A stretch of DNA of 64,000 bases from Candidatus Micrarchaeota archaeon (lineage in GTDB: Archaea; Micrarchaeota; Micrarchaeia; Micrarchaeales; CABMGC01). The position numbers were made by a program, and so were the translations under genes. The stretch spans positions 40,831-104,830 of the forward strand of contig JAWDMB010000002.1 of the NCBI GenBank assembly GCA_046536795.1, read 5' to 3'. Position 1 is the stretch's first letter. Every line of letters starts with the position of its first letter. The notes under the pieces are model-generated. The model ran no database searches, was not told where the DNA came from, and saw only the letters and a program-made list of their open reading frames with translations. This document shows, piece after piece, positions 18,477-31,819 of this stretch.

Positions 18477-20184
18477 TACCATGGATGCGAAAGAAATTAT
18501 AAGAAAGCTTGCAATAAAGAACGCTATGGATTATGGCAAAGCAGATTATAAGGCAGTACTTAGCAAGGCAATTGCAAAAGTTCCAGGAGCAAAAGAAAAT
18601 ATACAAGAGCTTTCAAAGCTTGTTAATGAAATTGTCTCAGAGATAAATGCCTTACCAAAAGAAAAGATAGAAGAAGAATATAGCAAGTATAGCGAAGAAT
18701 TTGAACAAGAAGAGAAAAAGAAGATAGAAGAGTCGAAGCCAAAGCTAGTTCTGCCTGGTGCAACTCCAGGCAACTTTGCAACACGATTTCCGCCCGAGCC
18801 AAGTGGCTATATGCATATCGGACACGCTAAGGTTGCATTTCTAGAACGCGAGTTTGCAAATATATACAATGGCAAGCTCTTCCTTTATTTTGATGATACA
18901 AACCCAGAAAAAGAAAAGCAGGAGTATGTTGATGCATTTAAAAAGGATTTGGAGTGGCTTGGTATAAAATTTGATGATGAATATTATGCAAGCGACAATC
19001 TAGAAAAGATCTATGAATTTGCAAGAAAGCTTATTAAAAAAGGAAAAGCTTATGTTTGCACATGCGATCCTGAAACAATAAGGAGAAATAGATTTAATGG
19101 CGTAGAGTGCGTGCATAGAAAACAGAGCATAGAAGAGAACCTTGCACTCTTTGAAGATATGCTAAAAGGTAAATTTGAGGAGGGAGAGGCTGTCTTAAGA
19201 TTCCTTGGTGACATGCAAAGCAAGAATACAACAATGAGAGACCCAACGCTTATAAGAATAAAGAAAACACCGCATTATAGACAAGGCAGCAAGTATATAC
19301 TTTGGCCCACATACGATTTTAACACTCCAATAATGGATTCGATACATGGAGTAACAGATGTTATAAGAAGCAAAGAATATGAGCTAAGAACAGAGCTTGA
19401 TCTTGCAATATTGGATGCACTCGAATTAAGAAAACCTAGGATACATCATGAGGCCAGATTGGTTATAAAAGATGTTCCAACACAAAAACGTGTTATAAAC
19501 AAGCTAATAAAAGATGGAATTGTGAGTGGTTTTGACGACCCAAGGCTTGTAACAATTGCAGCCCTAAGAAGGCGTGGCATAACACCAGAAGCGATAAAGA
19601 AGTTTGTGCTTAGGTTTGGAATGTCTAGAGTAGAAAGTACAATGGATATAAACATGCTTTTGGATGAAAATAGAAAGATTATAGACAAAACAGCAAAGAG
19701 GCTTTTTGGTGTTATAGATCCTGTGGAGCTTGAGGTAAGAGGAATAGGGAAAGTGCATGTAAAGCTTAGATTACACCCAAATGTTGATATGGGTTATAGA
19801 GAATATGATGTTGGCAATATTCTATACATTGGAAAAAGTGATGCACTCAACTTGAAGAAAGGCGAACAAATAAGGTTAAAAGACTTATATAATGTAGAGA
19901 TAGAAGAAGTTGGAGATAGAATAATAGGCAAATACATAGGTAACGATGCTATAGATGCACAGAAGATACAGTGGGTTGATAAGGCTAATTGTGTTAGTGC
20001 AAATTTCATAACGCCAAAGCCTTTGCTAGTAAATAATGAGATAAACAAAGATAGCTTAGTAGTTGAGAAAGGCTTATCTGAAAAGTATATAGAAATGATT
20101 AAAAAAGATGAGGTAGTACAATTTGAAAGAATAGGCTTCTTTAAGCTAGATAATGAAGAGAAAAAAGAGCTTATAAGACTATAA
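18463..20184 (+). CDS. gltX: Glutamyl-tRNA synthetase (archaeal type)
   Basis: 573 aa with the class I HIGH motif (YMHIGHAK), a catalytic core (RFDDTNP-like FDDTNPEKE) and an archaeal-type N-terminal helical extension. Confidence 0.92.
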   Translation: MNQHDTMDAKEIIRKLAIKNAMDYGKADYKAVLSKAIAKVPGAKENIQELSKLVNEIVSEINALPKEKIEEEYSKYSEEFEQEEKKKIEESKPKLVLPGATPGNFATRFPPEPSGYMHIGHAKVAFLEREFANIYNGKLFLYFDDTNPEKEKQEYVDAFKKDLEWLGIKFDDEYYASDNLEKIYEFARKLIKKGKAYVCTCDPETIRRNRFNGVECVHRKQSIEENLALFEDMLKGKFEEGEAVLRFLGDMQSKNTTMRDPTLIRIKKTPHYRQGSKYILWPTYDFNTPIMDSIHGVTDVIRSKEYELRTELDLAILDALELRKPRIHHEARLVIKDVPTQKRVINKLIKDGIVSGFDDPRLVTIAALRRRGITPEAIKKFVLRFGMSRVESTMDINMLLDENRKIIDKTAKRLFGVIDPVELEVRGIGKVHVKLRLHPNVDMGYREYDVGNILYIGKSDALNLKKGEQIRLKDLYNVEIEEVGDRIIGKYIGNDAIDAQKIQWVDKANCVSANFITPKPLLVNNEINKDSLVVEKGLSEKYIEMIKKDEVVQFERIGFFKLDNEEKKELIRL

Positions 20185-20200
20185 CCAAGCGAGTGAGATC

Positions 20201-20848
20201 ATGGAGTTTAAGATGAATGAGGATTTACTTGATATGCCAAAAGAAGCTTATAGAAATATAGCCTCGCAGGCTGTAGAGAATATTATAGATAAGAATAGAG
20301 CAGAGAAACTTAAAGAAAGCACACCTAACAGAGAACTTCTTGAAAATCATTTAGAGACTATGAGAAACATATTAAATAGCTACGAGTACGAATTAATTAA
20401 TATACAGAAGATTCTAAGCAATACAAAAAGAATGAAGATATGGGAGGTGCAGAAATACCTTAATATAGTTGAGGCGCTCGCATTCGGATACAAGAAAATT
20501 TTGGGAAGTGAAATAGCAATACCGCTTGTTACTGGCATAGTAACAAAATCAAATGATTTATACACACTTGATAAATACTATAATATGCTTGTTGGTGAGA
20601 TTGCAAAGAAGATACATATTGCTAGTTCAAAAGCAAAGATTGAAGAGAGAAAGATTGAAGAGCTTATGCTAGAGTTGAAATATAAACAAGCAAGCATACT
20701 TAGAATATTCAAACGTGGGGAAATAGAAAGAATTAAAAGAAGGATTCAAAGCAAAAGGAGAAAGATCGACAAATATAGTGCAATCGCTGAAAACTATAAG
20801 AAGCTGTTAGATGATACTAAGGCATTTGCAGAAAGAGCAGCAAAATAA
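20201..20848 (+). CDS. Hypothetical coiled-coil protein
   Basis: 215 aa, helical and charged. I do not recognise a family. Confidence 0.4.
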   Translation: MEFKMNEDLLDMPKEAYRNIASQAVENIIDKNRAEKLKESTPNRELLENHLETMRNILNSYEYELINIQKILSNTKRMKIWEVQKYLNIVEALAFGYKKILGSEIAIPLVTGIVTKSNDLYTLDKYYNMLVGEIAKKIHIASSKAKIEERKIEELMLELKYKQASILRIFKRGEIERIKRRIQSKRRKIDKYSAIAENYKKLLDDTKAFAERAAK

Positions 20849-20889
20849 TAAAAGGTGGCACAACGAAACTTCTAGAAGGAATCTACAAA

Positions 20890-21522
20890 GTGGATGGTGT
20901 CCTGGCAAATTCTTATATAGTATTGTATGGCGATCCAACCCTAATAGATGCTGGCATGCCGAATAATGGTAGAAGGATTATTGAATACGCGAATAACCTG
21001 CATGCACAACTCAAATATATTTTGCTTACGCATGCCCATATAGACCATGCTGGAAGCGTCAGCTATCTCAAAGAAAAAACAAATGCAAAGATTGCAATAC
21101 ATGAGGCTGATGCACCATATCTAAACGGATCAAAAAAGTTTACAATGCCAAAGGGCTTCAAAGGTTTTTTGTATAGGGTGCTTTATCCATTCATTTCGCC
21201 AAAGCCTCTAGAACCAGATATAAAGCTTAAGGATGGTGATTTAATCAATGGCTTTGAAGTTATCAATATTAAAGGTCACACAGAAGGAAGTTGCGCTTTT
21301 TATCACAGAGCAACGAAATCGCTATTTATAGGAGATTCTATTAGCATGGAGACAGGCAAGCCATCACTGCCTCCAGATAGATATAATTATAATACAGAAC
21401 TGCTTAAAGAGTCTCTGAAAAAGATCCTCGATTTGGATTTTGAAAATTTTTTCCCAGGACATGGCGATCCAATAGTTGGAGAGGCGGGAAGAATTGTAAA
21501 AGAATTTGTGCATTCTTTTTAA
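20890..21522 (+). CDS. MBL-fold metallo-hydrolase
   Basis: 210 aa with the HxHxDH motif (HAHIDHAG) plus downstream His/Asp ligands. GTG start. Confidence 0.85.
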   Translation: MDGVLANSYIVLYGDPTLIDAGMPNNGRRIIEYANNLHAQLKYILLTHAHIDHAGSVSYLKEKTNAKIAIHEADAPYLNGSKKFTMPKGFKGFLYRVLYPFISPKPLEPDIKLKDGDLINGFEVINIKGHTEGSCAFYHRATKSLFIGDSISMETGKPSLPPDRYNYNTELLKESLKKILDLDFENFFPGHGDPIVGEAGRIVKEFVHSF

Positions 21523-22110: not shown

Positions 22111-22210
22111 AAATTATACAACGCAATGCACCATACTAATAAAGTTCTGGCACCCTTCCCGAATAATTTGCGGCTTTCTGCCATACGTTTTGTACTTTCT
22201 TATTAGATTC

Positions 22211-22282
22211 GGGGAGCCCGAGATTTGAACTCGGGTCGCCAGGTCCCGAACCTGGAAGCCTACCAAGCTAGCAGAGCTCCCC
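22211..22282 (-). tRNA. tRNA-Pro (anticodon CGG)
   Basis: In the reverse complement the acceptor stem is GGGGAGC...GCTCCCC. The anticodon arm is CCAGG-TTCGGGA-CCTGG and the T arm is CCGAG-TTCAAAT-CTCGG. The D stem has 3 base pairs plus one mismatch. Confidence 0.85.
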
Positions 22283-23343
22283 TATAACACGATTGCACCA
22301 TTCTTATCTATAAGAACATCATCTTCTACTCTTACACCACCGAATCCAACGAGATAGATGCCGGGTTCAACAGCAAGGGTCATTCCTTTCTTTATTTTTC
22401 TATAAGGTGTATTTCCAAAAACCGATGCATCGTGCACCTCTAACCCTATACCATGGCCAAGAGCGTGTATAAACTTTCCTTTGTATACACCACCCTTATA
22501 TGAATCAATATATTTTCTAATCTCCTTTTCAACAGCATAAGCATCGACGCCTGGCTTCAGCATGTGTATAGCCATAAGTTGAACCTTTTTTACAAACTTG
22601 ATCATTTCCTCTGCGCGCTTATTAGCTCTTCCATATACAAAGGTTCTTGTTATATCTGCACAATAGTTGTTATATTTTGCACCCGTATCGATGAGCACCA
22701 GATCACCGTTATTTAGCTTTGTTTGATCTGGCATGTGATGTGGGAGTGCTGTATTTTTGCCAAATGCTACTATTGTATCAAAAGAATTTCCACTAGCACC
22801 CAAAGATTTCATTACAAAATCGACTTGCGCTGCAACCTCTAGCTCTGTCATGCCTGCCTTAATAGATTTCTGAACTTCCATTATTGCAAACTTTGTTATC
22901 GATACGGCTTTTCTTATGTTTGCTATTTCTTCTGCGCTTTTAACAAGTCTTGCTTTAATAAGGTTTTCGCTAACATCGATTATTTTACTTGGCTTGAATT
23001 TTTTTATTTTATTATAATCATTGAACGAAAGAAAGTCACCATTAACTCCTATAGATTTGCCTTTTATTACTGAAATAGCCTTTTTAAAATCTTTCTTACT
23101 TCCCAAAGCATTAATCACCTCTACCCCTTCCTTAGCTTGGGATAAAGCGGTTTCATATTCAAGTTCTGACGTAAGCACGCTTACCTTCTTTCTTGATGCG
23201 ATAAGGAAGTTGTCTTCAAATGTGCCACTAGTGAATCCTGTTAAGTACTTAAAGTTAGGGTCTTGCTCATCGCTGTTCTTAATTAGCAAAAGATTTATCT
23301 TTGCTCCAGAAAATATTTTCCTAAGCTTTGCTTCTATTTCCAT
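22282..23343 (-). CDS. Xaa-Pro aminopeptidase / M24-family peptidase
   Basis: 353 aa with M24 metal-ligand blocks (DTGAKYNNYCADITRT, HALGHGIGLEVHD, VEPGIY, RVEDDVLI). Confidence 0.9.
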   Translation of the reverse strand: MEIEAKLRKIFSGAKINLLLIKNSDEQDPNFKYLTGFTSGTFEDNFLIASRKKVSVLTSELEYETALSQAKEGVEVINALGSKKDFKKAISVIKGKSIGVNGDFLSFNDYNKIKKFKPSKIIDVSENLIKARLVKSAEEIANIRKAVSITKFAIMEVQKSIKAGMTELEVAAQVDFVMKSLGASGNSFDTIVAFGKNTALPHHMPDQTKLNNGDLVLIDTGAKYNNYCADITRTFVYGRANKRAEEMIKFVKKVQLMAIHMLKPGVDAYAVEKEIRKYIDSYKGGVYKGKFIHALGHGIGLEVHDASVFGNTPYRKIKKGMTLAVEPGIYLVGFGGVRVEDDVLIDKNGAIVL

Positions 23344-23841: not shown

Positions 23842-25059
23842 ATGCAGGGGGCTGAAGAACTAAACATAATAAGGAGCCCAATAGTCTACCTTAATATGCA
23901 TGATCCCAAATTTCTCAAATATTATTATAAGATGAAGACTGTTGAGCTTATAAAAGGCGATGAGCTTAGTGGATCATCACCGCCAGATATCTTTATAGGA
24001 AGCTATGGATATCCAAATGTTTTTATATCGCCTATGGTTCCTCCTTTGCATGGCTCTACAGAGGTTCTCTCTACGCCAGAGATGTGGCGGGGAATCGATA
24101 TTCCAAAAATTGTTGAATATAGAACTCTTCTTGTGCGAGGCATGTATAGATCAAATGTGCATAATGTTGAAAAGGGAAAAGTAGAGGAACTTATAAGGGA
24201 TTTCGCCCTTGCTGAGAAAAATGTAGATGCAAATATAGAGTTTGCAAGAAAGCCAGAGTTAAGAGTAGTCTTCGACGAGAATTCACAACCTTTTGGCCCC
24301 ACTGCACCACTAAAAAATATAGAAACAGGCAACATAAGCTCTGATAAAAGGTTAGAAAAAGCTTATTCTGATACAGACATGAATGCCACAACAGCTATGC
24401 TAGAGCTTTATGAAAAAGGTGTTCCTGTTTCGAAAATACAAAAGGCTCTTTCAGCAGGTCTGCTAGGGTTAGGCAAAAATAGGAAGTTCGTACCTACAAG
24501 GTGGAGTATAACAGCGGTTGATGATACAATTTCAAAAAATAAGATAAACAATGCAAAAGAGTATGAAAGCATTGACTCGATACTAGTATATGAGAATGTT
24601 GCACTTGACAATAGATGGATAATTCTCATGGTCCCTGGAAGCTGGAGCTATGAGCTTATCGAAGCGTGGTATCCAAATACAACCTGGAATATGGGTAGCA
24701 ACGAAATAGCAATATATTCTTCTTACGAATATTTCGAAGGTAGAAGAACTTATGCTGAGATAGGCGGCTGCTACTATGCAGCTAGGCTTGCTGTTTCCGA
24801 GCTTTTTGAAAGAATAAAGAAACAAGCTATAACTATTATTCTTAGAGAAACGCACCCTGGCTATACCCTCCCAGTAGGTGTTTGGAATGTAAGAGAGCAT
24901 GTAAGGGAAGCGCTTGAAAAGGAGCCGAAAAGATTTGATACACTTACTGATGCATTCTCTTATATACATACAAAACTTGATATACCAATTGCAGACTGGA
25001 TAAAAAATAGTAGAATATTAAAAGATATATTAAACCAGCGTAGGCTCTTTGGCAGGTAA
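23842..25059 (+). CDS. nreA: Archaeal Nre-family DNA repair protein (DUF650/DUF651)
   Basis: 405 aa with the blocks SGSSPPDIFIGSYGYPNVFISP and RKFVPTRWSITAVDD, characteristic of the Nre family. The C-terminus QRRLFGR could be a degenerate PIP-like tail. Confidence 0.7.
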   Translation: MQGAEELNIIRSPIVYLNMHDPKFLKYYYKMKTVELIKGDELSGSSPPDIFIGSYGYPNVFISPMVPPLHGSTEVLSTPEMWRGIDIPKIVEYRTLLVRGMYRSNVHNVEKGKVEELIRDFALAEKNVDANIEFARKPELRVVFDENSQPFGPTAPLKNIETGNISSDKRLEKAYSDTDMNATTAMLELYEKGVPVSKIQKALSAGLLGLGKNRKFVPTRWSITAVDDTISKNKINNAKEYESIDSILVYENVALDNRWIILMVPGSWSYELIEAWYPNTTWNMGSNEIAIYSSYEYFEGRRTYAEIGGCYYAARLAVSELFERIKKQAITIILRETHPGYTLPVGVWNVREHVREALEKEPKRFDTLTDAFSYIHTKLDIPIADWIKNSRILKDILNQRRLFGR

Positions 25060-27060
25060 TGCTTCTGCTTTTATTACCATACTCTTTGTATCCCTCTTAT
25101 GCTCTGCTGGTATTAGCAGCTTGTACCTTTTACCAATTATAAGATTATCAAACGTAACTTCACCGTTTACCACAACAGCAGATGAGATCTTTTCGCCAAG
25201 ATAATAGAGCTCCACCAACTTATCGTTGTATTTGCTCCCGAGATTTAGCTTTACATTTGTATAAAAGCGCCTTGTAAAATGATCTTTAATCCTGTACTCT
25301 GGTAGATTAAATTCATTGACTTTGACAAATACAGGCCCTTCAAGAAGCCTTTCTTTACCGTTTGCATATACATAGCTCATTGCACAAACACCCCTCTCAA
25401 GATATCTTAATCTATTTGAAGCCTCTTCACCAAAGCCCAAATCAGATAAAGCAAGCTTTACAATATCTGAACTCTGCCTGAAATAGAATTTATTCTGGCA
25501 AAGTCTTCTTATTGCTGGGCTTATATCAGTAATATTATGCGTTATCAAAATTAAGCCTATGCCCTTCTTTCTAAAGTCCTGAATCCTTTCTCTAAGATCT
25601 AGCGTTGGGGCGGAAAGCTCATCACCAAAAGCAAGTTGTGCTTCCTCTAGCACTAGGAGAAGTCTTAGCTTATCGTCACCATCTTCTGCAAAGGTATCGA
25701 CTATATTGTAAACTTGATTTAGTATAAGTGCATAGAAGAAGGCTTTCATATTATTGCTTACTTCTGACAAATCAAATACAACACCGCTTTTGAAAAGTTT
25801 ATTAAAATCTATGCCGTTTCTTTGGGCAAATTCTGGTCTTGAAAGCATGAGCCTTAAATTTTCGAGAGCAGCCATTGTATTCTCACCATGCTTAGTATAC
25901 TTAACCCCAACATTTGTCCTTTTTCCATGCTGTTCGATGATTGCTTCTTCTATTGCTTCATATACATCTTGTGGGTCTGGATCTTTTGCCAGCTTATAGA
26001 CTTTATGGAATGCTGCGAGTAGAACCTTTTCAAGCGAGTTTTTATAAGGACCAGCATTAGATGCACTTGCAATCAGCATGGCAAGATTCTCATAAAATTT
26101 TTCTATAGGCAATTTAGTATCAGACTTAAAGAAATTAATACAGAAATTATTGCTAGAATAAAGCCTTATTAACTTAAGGTTGTTTTTAACAGCAAACGAA
26201 GCCCATTCTTTTGTAGGGGAGATTATAACTACACTGCTACCCGATTTAAAAGCCTGCTCTGCAATACTCATTGCAGCATAAGTTTTTCCAGTCCCGGGCA
26301 TGCCAGTTATAATGCTACCCAAATTCAATGCACTCTTATTTATACTAATATTTATGCTACTGCTTTTTATCGAATCTTCAAGAAACGCGCCTATGATTAT
26401 GTCACTACCAGTGCGTGGAAAATCGGTTTGAATTTTATCTAACCTTTTGATAAAACTTGGAAAAGAAACAAGACCAGAAGCATATTCACTGCTAATAGGT
26501 ATTGAATCTATTCCTGAGAGTTTCCCAAAAGCTTCGCCAATCGAAGAAAAGTTTATGGAGCCGAGCTCTATTGTAAAAAGGTTGGGCTCAATCAACTTGT
26601 ATAACTTATCAAAATCTTTGCTGCTTATAAGAATAAAAAACTTGTAAGAACGCCCGTTTTCAAAGATTATTTTGTTAAGCATATCCAGTATAAATTCGAG
26701 CATCTTTCTTTCATCATATTTATAAAATAGTTCCATTTGCATGCTTCCTGAATGAAGACCCAGGGTTCTTGTAAACCTAACACCATATCTGCTTAGCTTA
26801 TGTTCTACTTTCCTCTTAATATTTTCTACGTATTTTATATCTGCTGGCACGAATGCAAAGATAAGTTTGCCAGCAAAATTATATGCTAAGTTTATTACCT
26901 TCTCAACCTTGTTTATCTGCTGTGTTATAACAAATTTGAAATCACCACTTATATCATATGAAATCTTATTAAAACCGGGTTGCTGTATATTAGCATTGCA
27001 TGAAACGAGCATTCTCTTATTATCAAGTTCGTATATTAATGAAAAGGCTTCCCCTAGCAT
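25030..27060 (-). CDS. HerA/FtsK-clade P-loop ATPase (DUF87-like), last gene of the T4SS-like operon
   Basis: 676 aa with Walker A GMPGTGKT, Walker B LLLVLEEAQ and a downstream KKGIGLILITHN block. There is no TM helix. The N-terminal ~230 aa and C-terminal ~110 aa are unassigned. Confidence 0.7.
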   Translation of the reverse strand: MLGEAFSLIYELDNKRMLVSCNANIQQPGFNKISYDISGDFKFVITQQINKVEKVINLAYNFAGKLIFAFVPADIKYVENIKRKVEHKLSRYGVRFTRTLGLHSGSMQMELFYKYDERKMLEFILDMLNKIIFENGRSYKFFILISSKDFDKLYKLIEPNLFTIELGSINFSSIGEAFGKLSGIDSIPISSEYASGLVSFPSFIKRLDKIQTDFPRTGSDIIIGAFLEDSIKSSSINISINKSALNLGSIITGMPGTGKTYAAMSIAEQAFKSGSSVVIISPTKEWASFAVKNNLKLIRLYSSNNFCINFFKSDTKLPIEKFYENLAMLIASASNAGPYKNSLEKVLLAAFHKVYKLAKDPDPQDVYEAIEEAIIEQHGKRTNVGVKYTKHGENTMAALENLRLMLSRPEFAQRNGIDFNKLFKSGVVFDLSEVSNNMKAFFYALILNQVYNIVDTFAEDGDDKLRLLLVLEEAQLAFGDELSAPTLDLRERIQDFRKKGIGLILITHNITDISPAIRRLCQNKFYFRQSSDIVKLALSDLGFGEEASNRLRYLERGVCAMSYVYANGKERLLEGPVFVKVNEFNLPEYRIKDHFTRRFYTNVKLNLGSKYNDKLVELYYLGEKISSAVVVNGEVTFDNLIIGKRYKLLIPAEHKRDTKSMVIKAEALPAKEPTLV

Positions 27061-27119
27061 AAGATCAACAAACCCTTTTGCATCAAACCCTTCTTGAATA
27101 GATTCGATATTATAGAAGT

Positions 27120-27365
27120 TCAGAAAACCACCAGAAGCAATATCAAAATATTTAGCAAGGATAGCATCACAACATGCAAATCAAAATTACCGTTTAGCCT
27201 ATTTATGTAGATAAAAGCAAACAAAACCACAGGTATTACAAAGACAAGAGAGAGGTTGCCAATAAATAAGTAAACTATAGCTATTATTGGAGAGACTATA
27301 CCAAAAGCCGCAAGAAGCTTTGCATAAATGGAATTGCTATGTTTATATAATCCTCTTAGATCCAT
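27120..27365 (-). CDS. Small membrane protein (3 predicted TM helices)
   Basis: 81 aa and almost entirely hydrophobic. Its ATG overlaps the stop of the upstream 59-aa ORF. Confidence 0.55.
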   Translation of the reverse strand: MDLRGLYKHSNSIYAKLLAAFGIVSPIIAIVYLFIGNLSLVFVIPVVLFAFIYINRLNGNFDLHVVMLSLLNILILLLVVF

Positions 27366-27535
27366 AGTATCACGAGCAAAAAAACAAAAATAAGAAAGAT
27401 TATAGAAATGTGCTTTGCGCTATCACCAGTCTCACCATTTACAATATATCTTATCATATAGTAGCTTATAATGCTCAAAAGCATAAGCCCGATAATCTTT
27501 GACCCTACAACAATAATCTCACGAAGATCAAGCAT
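27356..27535 (-). CDS. Small membrane protein (59 aa, 2 predicted TM helices), not in the ORF track
   Basis: Translated by hand: MLDLREIIVVGSKIIGLMLLSIISYYMIRYIVNGETGDSAKHISIIFLIFVFLLVILWI. Its ATG at 27535 overlaps the upstream stop (ATGCTTGA), and its stop overlaps the next ATG. It exactly fills the gap in a tightly coupled operon. Confidence 0.55.
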   Translation of the reverse strand: MLDLREIIVVGSKIIGLMLLSIISYYMIRYIVNGETGDSAKHISIIFLIFVFLLVILWI

Positions 27536-27974
27536 AGCTTATCACCCGAATAGTATTGTTCAGTATATGAGCAAGAATGATACCAGAAGGTGGGGAATAT
27601 GCACATATTGTTTTGTTCAGATCCTCAATAGTAGTAAACAATGAAAGCTCTTTAATACCCCTTTTAGACATAACTTCTTTAATGTTCCAAAATGGTACTA
27701 TTGAAAGTTTTTCAAAAGCTGTCCTTACTATATCCTTTTGATTAGGAGAAATGCCATTTAATATAAGCTCATCCTTTCCAAAATCGATAAACAGATCGTA
27801 AAGTTGTTCGCTGCGCAAAACTTTATTGTCTAAGCCAGTAACTTCTTTTTCTGGCTCTAGAATCATTATCTTCTTGTTTGAATAGCTAAAACTTTTCAAA
27901 AGAACTAGTATTAATATGCCGATTCCTATCGGCATTAAACTCAAAATAAAATTTAAATAAGACTGATTTATCAT
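27528..27974 (-). CDS. Membrane-anchored protein of unknown family
   Basis: 148 aa with an N-terminal TM helix (FILSLMPIGIGILILVLL) followed by an approximately 110-aa globular domain. The ATGA start overlaps the upstream gene. Confidence 0.55.
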   Translation of the reverse strand: MINQSYLNFILSLMPIGIGILILVLLKSFSYSNKKIMILEPEKEVTGLDNKVLRSEQLYDLFIDFGKDELILNGISPNQKDIVRTAFEKLSIVPFWNIKEVMSKRGIKELSLFTTIEDLNKTICAYSPPSGIILAHILNNTIRVISYA

Positions 27975-28618
27975 TTGATCAACCTTCTACTAAGCTTAGC
28001 TTCGTTTGCTTTCTGAAATGCCTTCTCTATAATTTGCATATCTAGATTATAGCGCTTGGCTAGCTCTTCTTTATCTGCATTACCGCTAAAAAGAATTATT
28101 TCTGAAAGAAAGTCAGAAACCTTCTCCTTATATAGTGATAACTCTTTACTAAGCGTATCAACTTCATTAGCTAGAGCAATTACTTTCTTGGAAAGCAAAA
28201 CGGCAACACCACGCTCCTTATCCCATGGGCCTATTCTCTCCACCTTGATCGCATGCTGTTCGGTGTTGTATAAGAAGTGCAATAAGTTTGGGAATATTGA
28301 GCTTATATCAAAAACATATAAATCACTAAGGAGCTGCGCTAGGCTAAAAAGCCTTAAGAGGGATTCTCTTTCGAAATATTCTGTTGAGAGATTAGAATAA
28401 ATATAAAGGGTTATTCCACTCCGTGAGAGCTTTATGGTATAGACTTTTTTATTAGCATCTTCAGCAGGTTCAGCTAACATATATTCAAGCTCTGTGCCTT
28501 CACTTATAAGCTTCAAGTGGGGGTAAAAAGACATCCTTTCCTTAACCTTAGCCATACTGCACTTGACTTCTCCACTTAGAGTTATTGCACCTTTGATTAA
28601 AAATTTATTTTCGAGCAT
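27971..28618 (-). CDS. Soluble protein of unknown family in the T4SS-like operon
   Basis: 215 aa from the ATG at 28618, which is preceded by AGGTGGTG (the ORF track uses GTG at 28627). It has no TM helix and no motif I recognise. Confidence 0.5.
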   Translation of the reverse strand: MLENKFLIKGAITLSGEVKCSMAKVKERMSFYPHLKLISEGTELEYMLAEPAEDANKKVYTIKLSRSGITLYIYSNLSTEYFERESLLRLFSLAQLLSDLYVFDISSIFPNLLHFLYNTEQHAIKVERIGPWDKERGVAVLLSKKVIALANEVDTLSKELSLYKEKVSDFLSEIILFSGNADKEELAKRYNLDMQIIEKAFQKANEAKLSRRLIK

Positions 28619-29612
28619 GCGCACCACCTAACTTGATTGCAAAAGCTTCTGCTATTTTGTCATCATCTATTCCCAATTCCCTAAGAAAGAAAAGAATCTC
28701 CTTATCGCTAAGCCCATTTTCAGCCAAAAGTTGCATAAGTTCATCAATCTTTAATTCATTGCTTAGATTGCCTATGAACTTTGTATAATCAAGACCCGCC
28801 TTGCTGAATGCTCTCTTAATTTGGGTTTCACTTACCTCTATCAAATCCTCACCCAAAAGAAGGTTAAACATCTTGGCTATTCCAACACCGCTTACCTTAT
28901 CAATGAAAAAAGAAGAGATGCTTTTGTCTTTATAGATTTGAATGACCATGCAGCTGCCTTGCCTTAGCTCTTGAATCTTTGCTATATCTGCTTCTCCTAA
29001 ATGGTAGTTCTTGGCAAGAAGCTCAAGACTCTTCTTATTCTGTGTCCTAAATACAAAGATAGATGCTATATTTGATAGTACACTACCTTCTATATCTTCA
29101 ATAAGCTGAGAAGCTATAACAACCCCAACCTTATACTTTCTACCTTCCCTAACTAACACATCGAGCATATCATTTTTGAGAAGGAGCTTCCAAGCTTCAT
29201 CAAAAAAGATTAATACATTATCATTTGATGCTGTGCTACGCCTGCGTGTACCTTCAATTATTCTTGAAAGAATAAATTCAGCGCGTTCTATTTTAGAAGC
29301 TTCACTTAGAGATGAAAGGTTATAATAAGCAATTTTTTCTTTGCCGAGCATGAAATCTGCAGGATCTGGTGAGCTTGCTGAGAAAAAGAGTATCTCTGAG
29401 TATTCACCTGTAAAATCTATTATCAGCACTCTTGTGCTTGAAAGAGCTATGCTCTTAAGTATCAGAGACTTCATCATATAGCTTTTACCAGAGCCCGTAA
29501 CACCGACTATGAATATGTGCGGATTAAGGAGCAAGTCTTGTCTAAACATGAAAGGGATACCAAATCTTTCGCTTCTGCCTATAAAGATTCCGCCATCTTG
29601 ATTTCTAAGCAT
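28605..29612 (-). CDS. VirB4/HerA-clade P-loop ATPase (AAA_10/DUF87-like)
   Basis: Walker A GVTGSGKS, Walker B VLIFFDEAW, then REGRKYKVGVVIASQ. An approximately 100-aa helical C-terminal tail follows. I use the ATG at 29612 (Met73 of the 407-aa ORF), because the longer ORF to 29828 overlaps the upstream gene by 142 nt. Confidence 0.75.
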   Translation of the reverse strand: MLRNQDGGIFIGRSERFGIPFMFRQDLLLNPHIFIVGVTGSGKSYMMKSLILKSIALSSTRVLIIDFTGEYSEILFFSASSPDPADFMLGKEKIAYYNLSSLSEASKIERAEFILSRIIEGTRRRSTASNDNVLIFFDEAWKLLLKNDMLDVLVREGRKYKVGVVIASQLIEDIEGSVLSNIASIFVFRTQNKKSLELLAKNYHLGEADIAKIQELRQGSCMVIQIYKDKSISSFFIDKVSGVGIAKMFNLLLGEDLIEVSETQIKRAFSKAGLDYTKFIGNLSNELKIDELMQLLAENGLSDKEILFFLRELGIDDDKIAEAFAIKLGGAHARK

Positions 29613-29686
29613 ATGTTCTTCGCTTGAATAAAATAAAGGAATATGCTTTGCAATCGTGCATGAGCTAAACCTGGCCAAACTAACAC

Positions 29687-30397
29687 CTATATTGCATTTA
29701 GCAATTCTTCGCCCCTTAGCAAACGATATCCTACATTTAGAGATGTAGCAAAAAGGTTTGCTACAAACTCTGCATTTCTTTGAGAAATCGAAGTAGCCTC
29801 GATTATCGAATTTGATGCCGCACGGCACTTGACCTTAAATTCTACATTGAAAGAATTTCCGCCAGAGTTTATTGCGTTTATCTCTGATTCTATTATGCTA
29901 ATCTCGCGCTTAAGCTTGCTAAGTTCTTTGCTATTTGGTTTTTCGCTTGCAAGCTGTATTTCCTTCATGTGAAGCTTTGTCTCAAGCTCATCTAATATGT
30001 GTTTCTTATTAAGTTCCTTTAACTCGATTGAATATTCAAAAGGAACCTTTATCCTATCTAGTAATTGCTCAAAAGTCAGGCTGTTGTTTGAAAGTTGCGA
30101 ATTTACTAGCAAAATGGCTACAGAAATGCTCTCATAAAAACCATTGCCCTTCTTAACAGCCGCGTATAAATTGTTGCTTAGCTCATAGCCATTTGAAAGT
30201 ACAACTACTCTGTTGTTTTTTATCAACAAATTGTTTATAAGCTTGCCAGCATGTAGATAGATTACAGATAAAAACGCTATTAAAAGTGCTAAAACGGCAA
30301 GCAAAGCACTTCCAAATAATAGTGAGAATAACAAAGAGATTATCGAAATTGCATAAAACGAGTATGCAAAGAGCTTATCACCAAGAGTTTCCATCAT
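29687..30397 (-). CDS. Membrane protein: N-terminal 2-TM hairpin plus a ~170-aa coiled-coil-containing domain
   Basis: 236 aa. Residues 8-50 form two hydrophobic helices and the rest is soluble. The ATGA start overlaps the upstream polytopic protein, and the gene lies directly upstream of the VirB4-like ATPase. Confidence 0.55.
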   Translation of the reverse strand: MMETLGDKLFAYSFYAISIISLLFSLLFGSALLAVLALLIAFLSVIYLHAGKLINNLLIKNNRVVVLSNGYELSNNLYAAVKKGNGFYESISVAILLVNSQLSNNSLTFEQLLDRIKVPFEYSIELKELNKKHILDELETKLHMKEIQLASEKPNSKELSKLKREISIIESEINAINSGGNSFNVEFKVKCRAASNSIIEATSISQRNAEFVANLFATSLNVGYRLLRGEELLNAI

Positions 30398-31431
30398 AGC
30401 ACCTTTAACTTGCCGAAGAACGCTTCAGAGCCAAGTAGTTCAGCTATCTCTCTTATTGAGATAGCAGTTATCACAAGATCAAATACAGGCAGTATAAAAA
30501 CTTGCATAACAAGAGATGAAGCATAAGAAATAAGCCCATTTAATATACTGCTTATCGATGAGAAAAGCTTTACGGCGCTGCTTTCTAATTTTATAACATC
30601 TGTAGAAGTTGCATTAGTGCCTATAGAAGATATTGTCTGATTTTCAAATGAAGAGGCATTAGAAGTAACTACAGTTATGCTGCTTGCATTATAACTTGAA
30701 TTGAATGAATTTAGCAGAATCGCGTTAAAAAGATAGGATAAAGGAAAAACAACATAAAGACCTATTGCAAGAGCTATGAAAAAACCACCAAGCTTCCTTG
30801 TAGGATAAAAGCTCCTTAGTATTATACCTAGCGGAAGTATTATTGAGACCGCTGTTAGAGCTATAAACACAAGCATCAATGCTTGCATAGAGGTGCTTAC
30901 AGCTGTTGCTGTAAGTATATTTATTATATACTGTATCTCATTAAGGAATGGCTTTATTATGAATGAAAAATTGAGCGAAACGATGATTAGATTTATGTCT
31001 AAAGATGCGAGCGCACCAAGTATTGTGCTAAGCAAAAACAGTGCAGATAGAAGCAAAGTAATCTTCTCCAAGAGCGAAATATGCACACTTCCCATAAATG
31101 TATAGGGCAGAGAACCAGCTAAGTAAGAGTAGGCAAAGCAAATAGCTAAATTGCTGCTCATATAGCTTGGACATGAAAACTGTGAATGTGTTGGAACTAA
31201 AGAATTGATCAGGCTATCTATAGGTCCATTATGGGCAAACAAAACAAGCAAGCCTCCAACAAGTATGCCATTTATTATTGATTGATAGATCTCGCTTTTT
31301 CCAAAATCCTTCAGCTTTCTATCGTCAAGTGCATAACCAAGGCCCAGTATAATACCACTTATTGCAAGCATTATGCTTATTAGCAATACTGCTATATCAA
31401 AGCCATAAAGGCCAAATGGCAATGCACTCAT
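30394..31431 (-). CDS. Polytopic membrane protein (about 7-8 TM helices), VirB6/CedA-like candidate
   Basis: 345 aa with multiple hydrophobic helices and a Ser/Asn/Thr-rich loop carrying several N-x-S/T sequons (NSS, NAS, NQT, NAT). It starts 4 nt downstream of the pilin-like gene. Confidence 0.55.
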   Translation of the reverse strand: MSALPFGLYGFDIAVLLISIMLAISGIILGLGYALDDRKLKDFGKSEIYQSIINGILVGGLLVLFAHNGPIDSLINSLVPTHSQFSCPSYMSSNLAICFAYSYLAGSLPYTFMGSVHISLLEKITLLLSALFLLSTILGALASLDINLIIVSLNFSFIIKPFLNEIQYIINILTATAVSTSMQALMLVFIALTAVSIILPLGIILRSFYPTRKLGGFFIALAIGLYVVFPLSYLFNAILLNSFNSSYNASSITVVTSNASSFENQTISSIGTNATSTDVIKLESSAVKLFSSISSILNGLISYASSLVMQVFILPVFDLVITAISIREIAELLGSEAFFGKLKVL

Positions 31432-31435
31432 AAAT

Positions 31436-31819
31436 CTACCTTATTGAATTTGCTATTGAATTTACAGAAATGTTGCTCAGCAATTGGGTAGATGCTAAGG
31501 CCAAACTATTAGAAGCCACTGCTAGAACGGCAACAACTATTGCACCTATTATTATGTTTATAGAAGCAGTATGGAAGCTTGCTCTTTTATCTGGCGGAAG
31601 AAGCTGGCCTAAAGCATAGAATATGCCTGCAATAACAAATAGAAGTGCGCTAAGCATAGGACCGATGTGCATGAGCAGTTGCTGGGTATAGCTTAGCGTA
31701 CCTATAATATCAAATGCAAATGCAGAACTCTTCGCAACGCCAGGTATCAGTGCTATTATAAAGAAAGGTATTTTTGCAATGATCTTGCGGAGCACTTCGT
31801 GCTTATATTTGCTTTGCAT
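31436..31819 (-). CDS. VirB2/TrbC-like pilin candidate (long signal peptide plus a two-helix hairpin)
   Basis: 127 aa. The charged N-terminus and h-region IPFFIIALIPGVAKSSAFA end in an AFA cleavage-like site. Two hydrophobic helices follow (MLSALLFVIAGIFYALGQLL and INIIIGAIVVAVLAVASNSL), joined by the basic loop PPDKRASFH. GTGAT lies 5 nt upstream of the ATG. Confidence 0.55.
   Translation of the reverse strand: MQSKYKHEVLRKIIAKIPFFIIALIPGVAKSSAFAFDIIGTLSYTQQLLMHIGPMLSALLFVIAGIFYALGQLLPPDKRASFHTASINIIIGAIVVAVLAVASNSLALASTQLLSNISVNSIANSIR

Follow-up and report, generated by a model that had tools for sequence, protein, structure and literature searches.

We propose, with a probability slightly above one half (about 0.55), that the gene p676 in a 64,000-nucleotide stretch of DNA from a Candidatus Micrarchaeota archaeon (contig JAWDMB010000002.1; the whole stretch is referred to as the window) encodes the CedD-like, large distal second motor ATPase of a chromosomal operon that is derived from a type IV secretion system (T4SS) and resembles the Ced and Ted systems. 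p676 is the last of nine minus-strand genes, which overlap or nearly abut between 31819 and 25030 in the order p127, p345, p236, p407, p218, p148, p59, p81, p676. The operon is read as T4SS-derived because the family of the pilin p127 matches the T4SS_pilin and TrbC models, the shorter ATPase p407 matches AAA_10, TrwB_AAD_bind and P-loop_TraG, and the transmembrane (TM) topologies fit such an origin. With a pilin, a polytopic membrane protein and two ATPases it repeats the Ced/Ted design, and since the components are so diverged we regard it as a separate variant of this design.

The original prediction, which was made from the letters of the window, had described a second, larger ATPase within a T4SS-like gene set. 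This description has proved sound, as the set holds a VirB2/TrbC-like pilin, a protein with six to seven TM segments and an ATPase with a DEAW Walker B motif. A soluble second ATPase beside a VirB4-like one has been described before, namely CedD of the Ced system, which belongs to the HerA clade, is essential for DNA import and is part of the same machinery as CedB (PMC11823120, PMC11868833).

The p676 gene

The open reading frame (ORF) from 25030 to 27060, 676 residues on the minus strand, had been predicted to encode an FtsK/HerA-clade ATPase. Two Pfam models agree with this, DUF87 with 33.8 bits (cut-off 23.2) and HerA_C with 22.9 bits (cut-off 22), and they are the sole models above their cut-offs. 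The gene is real, because 219 homologues with an expectation value (E) of at most 1e-3 were found among 5.8 billion proteins, with 39-99% identity and approximately full length. The named homologues come nearly all from metagenome-assembled genomes of Micrarchaeota, on contigs of up to 650 kb. A few family members are deposited as Candidatus Marsarchaeota, Aquilonibacter or Acidoferrales bacterium, all other named ones being Micrarchaeota; these off-taxon names may be errors of binning or labelling. At its 3' end p676 overlaps the convergent gene nreA (23842..25059, plus strand; Pfam Nre_N 6.6e-90, Nre_C 3.2e-39) by the 30 nucleotides from 25030 to 25059, as had been noted before.

The true start probably lies upstream of the annotated ATG. 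In relatives (loci L001, L005 and L008) the gene begins with a TTG within the sequence TTGA, which overlaps the stop codon of the upstream gene, and at the same site the window (27123-27121) and L004 carry a CTG. The 20 codons between this CTG and the ATG encode the peptide NFYNIESIQEGFDAKGFVDL, which is conserved in comparison to a 94%-identical relative, the changes being synonymous. The TTG of the relatives and the protein-level conservation of the intervening codons argue for a start at the CTG at 27123, which would give a protein of 697 residues (25030..27123). The lengths assigned by gene callers are 676 residues in the clade of the window and 697-698 residues in the next clade.

Motifs, domains and predicted structure

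The Walker A motif GMPGTGKT is present as predicted, though at residues 253-260 and not at about residue 245. The Walker B motif LLLVLEEAQ (467-475) and the arginine-rich block behind it, RERIQDFRKKGIGLILITHN at 490-509, were described correctly. In an alignment of 50 family members K258, E472, R496, H507, R517 and R518 never change, and conservation reaches at least 90% at E471 and Q474. R496 is a candidate arginine finger and H507 a candidate sensor-1 residue, both roles being assigned by analogy to the superfamily. In view of its invariant catalytic residues the family is under selection as an active ATPase. A profile comparison (hhalign) of the p676 and p407 families, in which the RERIQDFRKKGIGLILITHN block is aligned with the REGRKYKVGVVIASQ block of p407, gave a probability of 96.4% (E 1.3e-9); by this measure the two ATPases are remote paralogues.

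A Kyte-Doolittle scan detected no TM-like segment in the 676 residues of p676, in agreement with the original prediction. The related claim of an unanchored ATPase stands in part: p676 has no anchor of its own, and the missing anchor is probably supplied in trans by the small multi-TM proteins encoded upstream.

The AlphaFold2 model computed from the 50-sequence alignment (mean predicted local distance difference test score, pLDDT, 88.6; predicted template-modelling score, pTM, 0.77) is confident. It begins with an N-terminal alpha/beta domain, to which a beta-hairpin and the P-loop core with its helical insertion are joined; a long beta-hairpin and a variable linker then lead to the C-terminal beta domain of six strands. 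Neither the N- nor the C-terminal region is covered by any Pfam or NCBIfam model, so that their earlier description as unassigned holds at the sequence level.

The whole model was compared to structures in the PDB. The best fold match is HerA of S. solfataricus (4d2i, E 2e-16), and the C-domain of VirB4 (4ag5) follows with E 3.6e-15 and a template-modelling score TMt of 0.62, a good match which nevertheless does not discriminate among the families. Further matches are TrwK/VirB4 of the R388 T4SS, with which the full-length model aligns over 587-663 columns, HerA proteins associated with SIR2 or DUF4297, and DndH-C (TMt 0.70). TrwB occurs at ranks 47-50 (E 5e-10, TMt 0.60), behind HerA and VirB4. 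A search of PDB sequences with the profile of the family gave marginal values for HerA (8wiv, 4e-4), VirB4 (4ag5, 1.4e-3) and YjgR (2.2e-3).

Modelled alone (pLDDT 81.3), the N-domain has no PDB fold match at E of at most 1e-3. Its top four matches are all TrwK/VirB4 (7o42, 7o43) and are insignificant, with a best E of 0.011. Four of the next six are unnamed chains of R388 T4SS complexes with a TrwK-like length. The T4SS matches within the top ten range from E 0.011 to 0.25, at a probability of up to 0.92, and from 0.25 to 0.37 in TMq. Judged from the model, the N-domain thus weakly resembles that of VirB4, and it is certainly not the HAS-barrel of HerA.

No other part of the family is as conserved as the helical insertion of approximately 146 residues, where 57 of 146 columns reach at least 90%, more than in the catalytic core. 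The insertion contains a basic hairpin, HGKRTNVGVKYTKHGEN, which matches no motif recognised by us. According to the hhalign comparison the insertion is specific to p676 and not found in p407. The C-terminal domain gave matches below threshold to CarboxypepD_reg, SpaA, SdrD_B, bMG3 or Big_1 in eight of ten family members and is likely a prealbumin/CarboxypepD_reg-like (transthyretin- or Ig-like) beta-sandwich.

Family boundaries and closest known family

In an all-against-all profile search of 1.84 billion representative proteins the p676 family gave 107 matches at E of at most 1e-30. The scores of the 150 best matches fall into separate classes: full-length, orthologue-like proteins reach at least 586 bits, a sister group 206-373 bits and all others at most 68 bits. 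Most of these outgroup proteins are themselves matched best by CedD, below its threshold. Measured by these scores the family is sharply delimited. It is so far unannotated, its members being named “DUF87 domain-containing”, “ATP-binding” or “hypothetical” in the databases. The sister family (815-1052 residues) is rare. It has the N-domain and the ATPase in common with p676, with approximately 31% identity over residues 55-582, and ends in a different and longer C-terminus. Its loci L044-L048 (P0174, P0175, P0177, P0180, P0182, P0188, P0190) have unrelated contexts, a guanine plus cytosine (G+C) content of 44-51% and an archaeal histone gene nearby.

The 50 family members were also compared to the curated families of NCBIfam, 16 of which were matched. 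The most frequent is CedD, with 45 of the 50 members, followed by the VirB4-like CD1110 (26 of 50) and VirB4_plasma (19 of 50), the matches to the latter two spanning the whole ATPase domain. By these models CedD is the curated family which p676 resembles most, though far below the family cut-off. The level of identity, 10-18%, is too low for a robust tree of VirD4, FtsK, HerA and VirB4.

Linkage of p676 to the operon

A search of GTDB species representatives with the p407 family yielded 35 operon loci in Micrarchaeota, and 22 of these have a p676 homologue 2-2.5 kb downstream. Metagenome loci of p676 with enough upstream DNA to be judged numbered 28; the operon stands beside p676 in 23 and is missing in five. 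As with CedD, a CedB-like ATPase, a polytopic protein and a VirB2-like pilin thus accompany p676 in 22/35 and 23/28 loci, and in unlinked form in the genome GCA_023476545.1. An additional stand-alone copy lies on a 490-kb contig. In this copy and in three of the five unlinked ones a small gene for a protein with three TM segments is found directly upstream, the overlap of stop and start being kept. Proteins of 81-95 residues with three TM segments precede the p676 homologues in L001-L003, in the unlinked loci L068, L093 and L105, and in L109. p81 is a candidate membrane tether of p676, in a VirB3-like position.

Several observations weigh against our reading of p676 as a CedD-like motor of this operon. 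Firstly, p676 is not adjacent to the operon in 13 of the 35 loci, where two or three small genes close the operon and unrelated genes come next; contigs of 771 kb, 587 kb and 355 kb are among them. Nine of these 13 operons form one clade by p345 identity (58-76%), which therefore points to few evolutionary events. The original prediction had named the absence of the gene from copies of the operon as an argument against itself. In the only genome in which this could be followed, GCA_023476545.1, the gene is found elsewhere: the operon without p676 lies on JAMCYP010000001.1 (p345 homologue M1286_00085), and a p676 homologue, M1286_03025, lies on JAMCYP010000018.1 (713 residues, 40% identity over 97% of the query). 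The two contigs were assigned to one genome by the shared locus-tag prefix and the assembly accession, and the gene is here relocated, not lost, so that the prediction was not refuted on this count. Secondly, p676 scores 47.9 bits on the CedD model NF053655, the equivalog cut-off of which is 600, the match covers the ATPase core only, and p407 scores equally on the same model. Thirdly, no pilin operon is found near the sister family within the flanks examined; the module of N-domain and ATPase can therefore work without the operon, or at least be encoded elsewhere. Finally, Pfam searches with p345 and its family and a PDB profile search detected no homology to VirB6, CedA or TedA, and the label VirB6-, CedA- or TedA-like for p345 is drawn from topology and position only.

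Near the stand-alone p94+p676 pair of three loci we further report a divergently oriented DUF87 ATPase of 564-593 residues (L109 5601-7295, L110 5601-7322 and L105 5314-7095, all on the minus strand), which has an extra C-terminal domain and is followed by small membrane proteins. This neighbourhood may be a separate system. In L109 a phage-type integrase (19528-21048) is located about 7 kb downstream of the p676 homologue.

Genomic setting

Relatives at 60% and approximately 42% identity share the gene order of the operon; the contigs concerned measure 58, 490, 587 and 651 kb. The loci L001, L002, L003 and L107 have the same order within differing housekeeping flanks (ribosomal proteins, tRNA synthetases, Lon, Alba and others), and dozens of Micrarchaeota genomes contain the operon, its flanks differing from one to another. 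In a tblastn search p676 matched none of 72,556 plasmids and none of 50,697 phage records. The G+C content at the locus is unremarkable, Pfam and NCBIfam searches of the window neighbours examined revealed no relaxase-like or integrase-like family, and no repeat boundary was seen at the operon. The sole nearby tRNA is a tRNA-Pro (CGG) at 22210-22282 on the minus strand, at which no sign of an integration site was seen; it abuts the stop-codon end of a pepQ-like M24 peptidase ORF (22282-23343, minus strand) and shares base 22282 with it.

The operon is a chromosomal, vertically conserved, lineage-wide feature of Micrarchaeota and not a plasmid or an integrated conjugative element. The framing of the original prediction as a conjugative system has therefore to be given up, in view of the housekeeping genes around the operon, its varying flanks, the phylum-wide synteny, the missing integrase and the tblastn result.

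The same setting bears on the possibility that p676 belongs to a mobile element or to anti-phage defence, be it as an ATPase with a HerA-type effector, a MADS-like component or the A32-type packaging ATPase of an integrated virus. PADLOC did return mad8 with 53.6 bits and several HerA defence models with at most 23 bits, and phage proteins turn up in a viral fold search. The PADLOC matches are weak and reflect similarity of the ATPase core only, the other operon proteins gave no relevant PADLOC match, and no gene for Sir2, DUF4297, a nuclease or another effector is present in the operon. In the viral fold search A32-like ATPases score far worse (E 1e-4 to 1e-6) than VirB4- and HerA-like phage proteins (1e-16 to 1e-19). 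Taken with the vertical conservation across a phylum, the normal G+C content and the missing phage and plasmid matches, we consider a role in defence or in a mobile element very improbable, and p676 was rejected both as an anti-phage HerA/MADS protein and as a viral A32/FtsK-type packaging ATPase.

Roles of the two ATPases and proposed mechanism

As a CedD-like second motor, p676 would assemble into a ring, as expected from its homology with HerA, VirB4 and TrwB, and would sit on the cytoplasmic side of the membrane complex. It would be held there by the mini membrane proteins p81 and p59, analogous to VirB3 with VirB4; this tether is considered likely because p676 has no TM segment and is translationally coupled to p81 (and p59). 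The VirB4-like N-domain could help to dock it. Hydrolysis of ATP, with K258, E471/E472, R496 as arginine finger and H507 as sensor-1 residue, would drive the movement of a polymer. The substrate would most likely be DNA, moved through the p345 channel and the pilus apparatus. p407 would act as the core motor together with p676, and candidate surfaces for the substrate or for partners are the C-terminal sandwich and the conserved helical insertion, which carries the basic hairpin.

The roles could also be swapped. p676 would then be the functional VirB4 for pilus assembly, docked by its N-domain on a VirB3-like protein, and p407 the substrate or coupling motor. The fold matches of the N-domain to TrwK/VirB4 and to R388 T4SS chains argue in this direction, as do the length of the TrwK alignment of the full model, the matches to CD1110 and VirB4_plasma, and the small multi-TM genes upstream, which mirror virB3-virB4 by their overlapping stop and start. 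p407, in turn, lacks the N-domain and scores above cut-off with TrwB_AAD_bind and P-loop_TraG. These coupling-protein matches are, however, confined to the P-loop region of p407. It is also p407 which has the DEAW motif and the stronger AAA_10 match (57.5 against 22.6 bits), p676 having EEAQ, and PF03135, the model of the VirB4 N-domain, is not matched by p676. A gene which is detachable in 13/35 copies would moreover be unexpected for the one universal ATPase of a T4SS. The evidence is therefore divided: the N-domain and the VirB3-like neighbour favour p676 as the VirB4, and the DEAW motif, AAA_10 and the constant membership in the operon favour p407. We regard swapped roles as doubtful, yet as deserving attention beside the assignment of p676 as second motor.

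Genes and features of the locus

The positions of p676, its parts and the remaining operon genes are given in Table 1.

Table 1. Features of p676 and of the operon in the window; residue numbers of p676 are those of the ORF of 676 residues.
Feature	Position	Strand	Remarks
p676, large soluble FtsK/HerA-superfamily ATPase	25030..27060	(-)	ATG-defined ORF, 676 residues
Probable N-terminal extension of p676, 21 codons, CTG start	27061..27123	(-)	overlaps the stop of the upstream 81-residue gene (p81)
N-terminal alpha/beta domain, residues 1-222	26395..27060	(-)	secondary structure of the models; long helices
Walker A GMPGTGKT, residues 253-260	26281..26304	(-)	G252, P254, G255, G257, K258 invariant in 50 sequences
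Helical insertion, residues ~300-445, between Walker A and Walker B	25726..26163	(-)	gap of p407 in hhalign; model helices 318-424 and a small hairpin
Walker B LLLVLEEAQ, EEAQ type, residues 467-475	25636..25662	(-)	E472 invariant; E471/A473/Q474 at least 90% conserved
RERIQDFRKKGIGLILITHN block, residues 490-509	25534..25593	(-)	F495, R496, K497, H507 invariant
C-terminal beta domain, residues ~599-666, six strands	25063..25266	(-)	model strands 599-663
p127, VirB2/TrbC-like pilin precursor	31436..31819	(-)	signal peptide and two hydrophobic helices around a basic loop
p345, polytopic membrane protein, 6-7 TM	30394..31431	(-)	TM scan; position of VirB6/CedA/TedA
p236, bitopic, N-terminal TM and coiled-coil-rich domain	29687..30397	(-)	no family match
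p407, short ATPase, DEAW Walker B and EGRKY motif	28605..29612	(-)	~336 residues, start ATG 29612
p218, soluble protein	27971..28627	(-)	no family match; conserved in most operon copies
p148, bitopic, N-terminal TM	27528..27974	(-)	no family match
p59, 59-residue ORF, two hydrophobic (TM) helices	27356..27535	(-)	overlaps the p148 stop and the p81 start
p81, small protein, ~3 TM, directly upstream of p676	27120..27365	(-)	stop overlaps the p676 start

p127 is conserved more strongly than any other protein of the operon, and its signal is of the signal-peptidase-I-like type. Out of 31 members of its family, 15 match PF18895 (T4SS_pilin; best 3e-7) and ten match PF04956 (TrbC/VirB2; best 5.4e-6). 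A type IV pilus system of the PilB/PilC kind was rejected, as the ATPases belong to the HerA/VirB4 clade and not to T2SSE and the pilin is VirB2-like with the TrbC and T4SS_pilin matches. p345 is conserved in all copies of the operon. PDB profile searches with p345, p236 and p127 returned nothing useful.

For p407, Pfam gave AAA_10 with the score stated above, DUF87 with 49.7 bits and TrwB_AAD_bind with 37.4 bits. The mechanical ORF of p407 (28605-29828, minus strand) has 407 residues, a GTG start and a 142-nucleotide overlap with p236; the alignment with homologues indicates the ATG at 29612 (MLRNQ...) as the real start. In one subclade (L107 6844-8241, L108 4865-6262) the short operon ATPase has 465 instead of 336-377 residues. 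It has gained an N-terminal extension, which may bear on the question of which ATPase carries the docking domain.

The gene p59 lies below the 60-residue ORF threshold and fills an apparent intergenic gap of 162 nucleotides, by which the operon comes to nine genes. Genes of 61 residues in L002 and L003 are its counterparts by position.

Implications for Micrarchaeota

Micrarchaeota are ultra-small DPANN archaea with reduced genomes which depend on a host, and the routes by which the two partners exchange material are still being sought. The operon makes a gene set with a pilin and two ATPases, of the conjugation, Ced or Ted type, a conserved chromosomal feature of this lineage, and it is a concrete candidate for a machine that exchanges DNA or other macromolecules in DPANN. 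It would extend the idea of a “domesticated T4SS” beyond Thermoproteota and provide a second example of the two-ATPase design of CedB and CedD. We found no published description of the p676 family or of the operon in the literature searched, which lay mostly outside subscription journals.

As a tentative and rather doubtful extension, the operon could be a domesticated conjugation-type apparatus which pulls DNA from hosts or neighbours of the Thermoplasmatales type, as a source of nucleotides or for gene acquisition, with p676 as the substrate motor. If this were true, the operon would be the DPANN counterpart of Ced and Ted acting between species, and p676 with its family-specific helical insertion and C-terminal beta-sandwich would stand for a DNA-handling ATPase of a new type, which mini membrane proteins tether in trans. 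The interest would be greater still if the apparatus moved host DNA into genome-reduced symbionts.

Comparison with known systems

p676 shares with HerA the DUF87/HerA central domain, the EEA[HQ]-type Walker B motif and the best PDB fold match, and it differs in lacking a HAS-barrel and the neighbours NurA, Mre11 and Rad50. These likenesses, together with the HerA_C match, the convergent repair protein NreA and the existence of stand-alone copies and of a stand-alone sister family, could suggest a HerA-type DNA-repair or recombination translocase which works independently of the pilus, its linkage being mere genomic neighbourhood, for example with nreA. The N-domain, however, is alpha/beta with long helices, and the fold search with this domain alone gave no match to a HerA or F1-type barrel. 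Neither the window neighbours nor nine related loci include NurA, Mre11 or Rad50. The HerA equivalog models NF040819 and NF040937 are matched by none of the 50 members, and an anti-phage HerA model is matched weakly by two. The adjacency to NreA is lost in L002, L003 and L107, whereas the linkage to the operon persists with overlapping start and stop. We therefore rejected p676 as a repair HerA and hold this role to be improbable. A strong match to a non-secretion family, which the original prediction had named as speaking against it, was looked for and none was found.

p676 resembles VirD4, TrwB and TraG in so far as it belongs to their superfamily, is encoded as the second ATPase of a T4SS-like gene set and has the TrwB fold match. 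A possible further likeness is the helical insertion, which occupies the place of the all-alpha domain in the nucleotide-binding domain. VirB4 and HerA have helical bundles there as well. p676 differs by the missing N-terminal TM anchor, in place of which the model has a soluble alpha/beta N-domain, and by the missing relaxase or plasmid context. The coupling-protein models TrwB_AAD_bind, T4SS-DNA_transf and the TraD/TraG TIGRFAMs are not matched by p676, and SXT_TraD is matched weakly by 2/50 members. The VirD4/TraG-type coupling role put forward in the original prediction was rejected on these grounds and by the low rank of TrwB in the fold search. An assignment to FtsK/SpoIIIE was likewise rejected, since PF01580 is not matched, a TM segment is missing and no FtsK structure occurs among the top 50 fold matches.

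With VirB4, TrwK and TrbE, p676 shares a two-part layout, in which an alpha/beta domain at the N-terminus precedes an FtsK/HerA-type ATPase with a helical bundle. Further likenesses are the fold matches to 4ag5 and TrwK and the VirB4-like NCBIfam matches. Its gene follows small TM genes as virB4 follows virB3, and a VirB2-like pilin and the polytopic p345 are encoded alongside. In contrast to VirB4, p676 has no match to PF03135 (CagE_TrbE_VirB N-domain), stays with AAA_10 below the cut-off of 27.5 bits, has an extra C-terminal beta domain and is encoded by a gene separable from the operon. DEAW is the Walker B signature of VirB4-type ATPases, and here it is found in p407 and not in p676.

The closest parallels are those to Ted and Ced. 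In the Ted loci of Thermoproteales a HerA-like ATPase stands beside the VirB4-like TedB (PMC9905601), a pairing next to which p676 and p407 can be set by the description of the locus. CedD (NF053655; SiRe_1715/Saci_0667) and p676 differ in that p676 is approximately 150 residues longer and has the additional C-terminal beta domain, comes from the DPANN lineage Micrarchaeota instead of Thermoproteota, and is usually encoded within the operon, coupled to small TM proteins. CedD and p676 are alike in being soluble HerA-clade ATPases with a further HerA/VirB4-like ATPase at their side (CedB and p407, respectively), and in both systems the pilin is VirB2-like and a membrane protein is polytopic. 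Like p676 in some Micrarchaeota, cedD lies apart from the genes of its partners. The N-domain of CedD has been reported to resemble part of the N-terminal domain of VirB4 (PMC11868833), which is weakly the case for p676 as well. By analogy, the role proposed for p676 would match the genetically shown role of CedD beside CedB in the DNA import of Sulfolobales.

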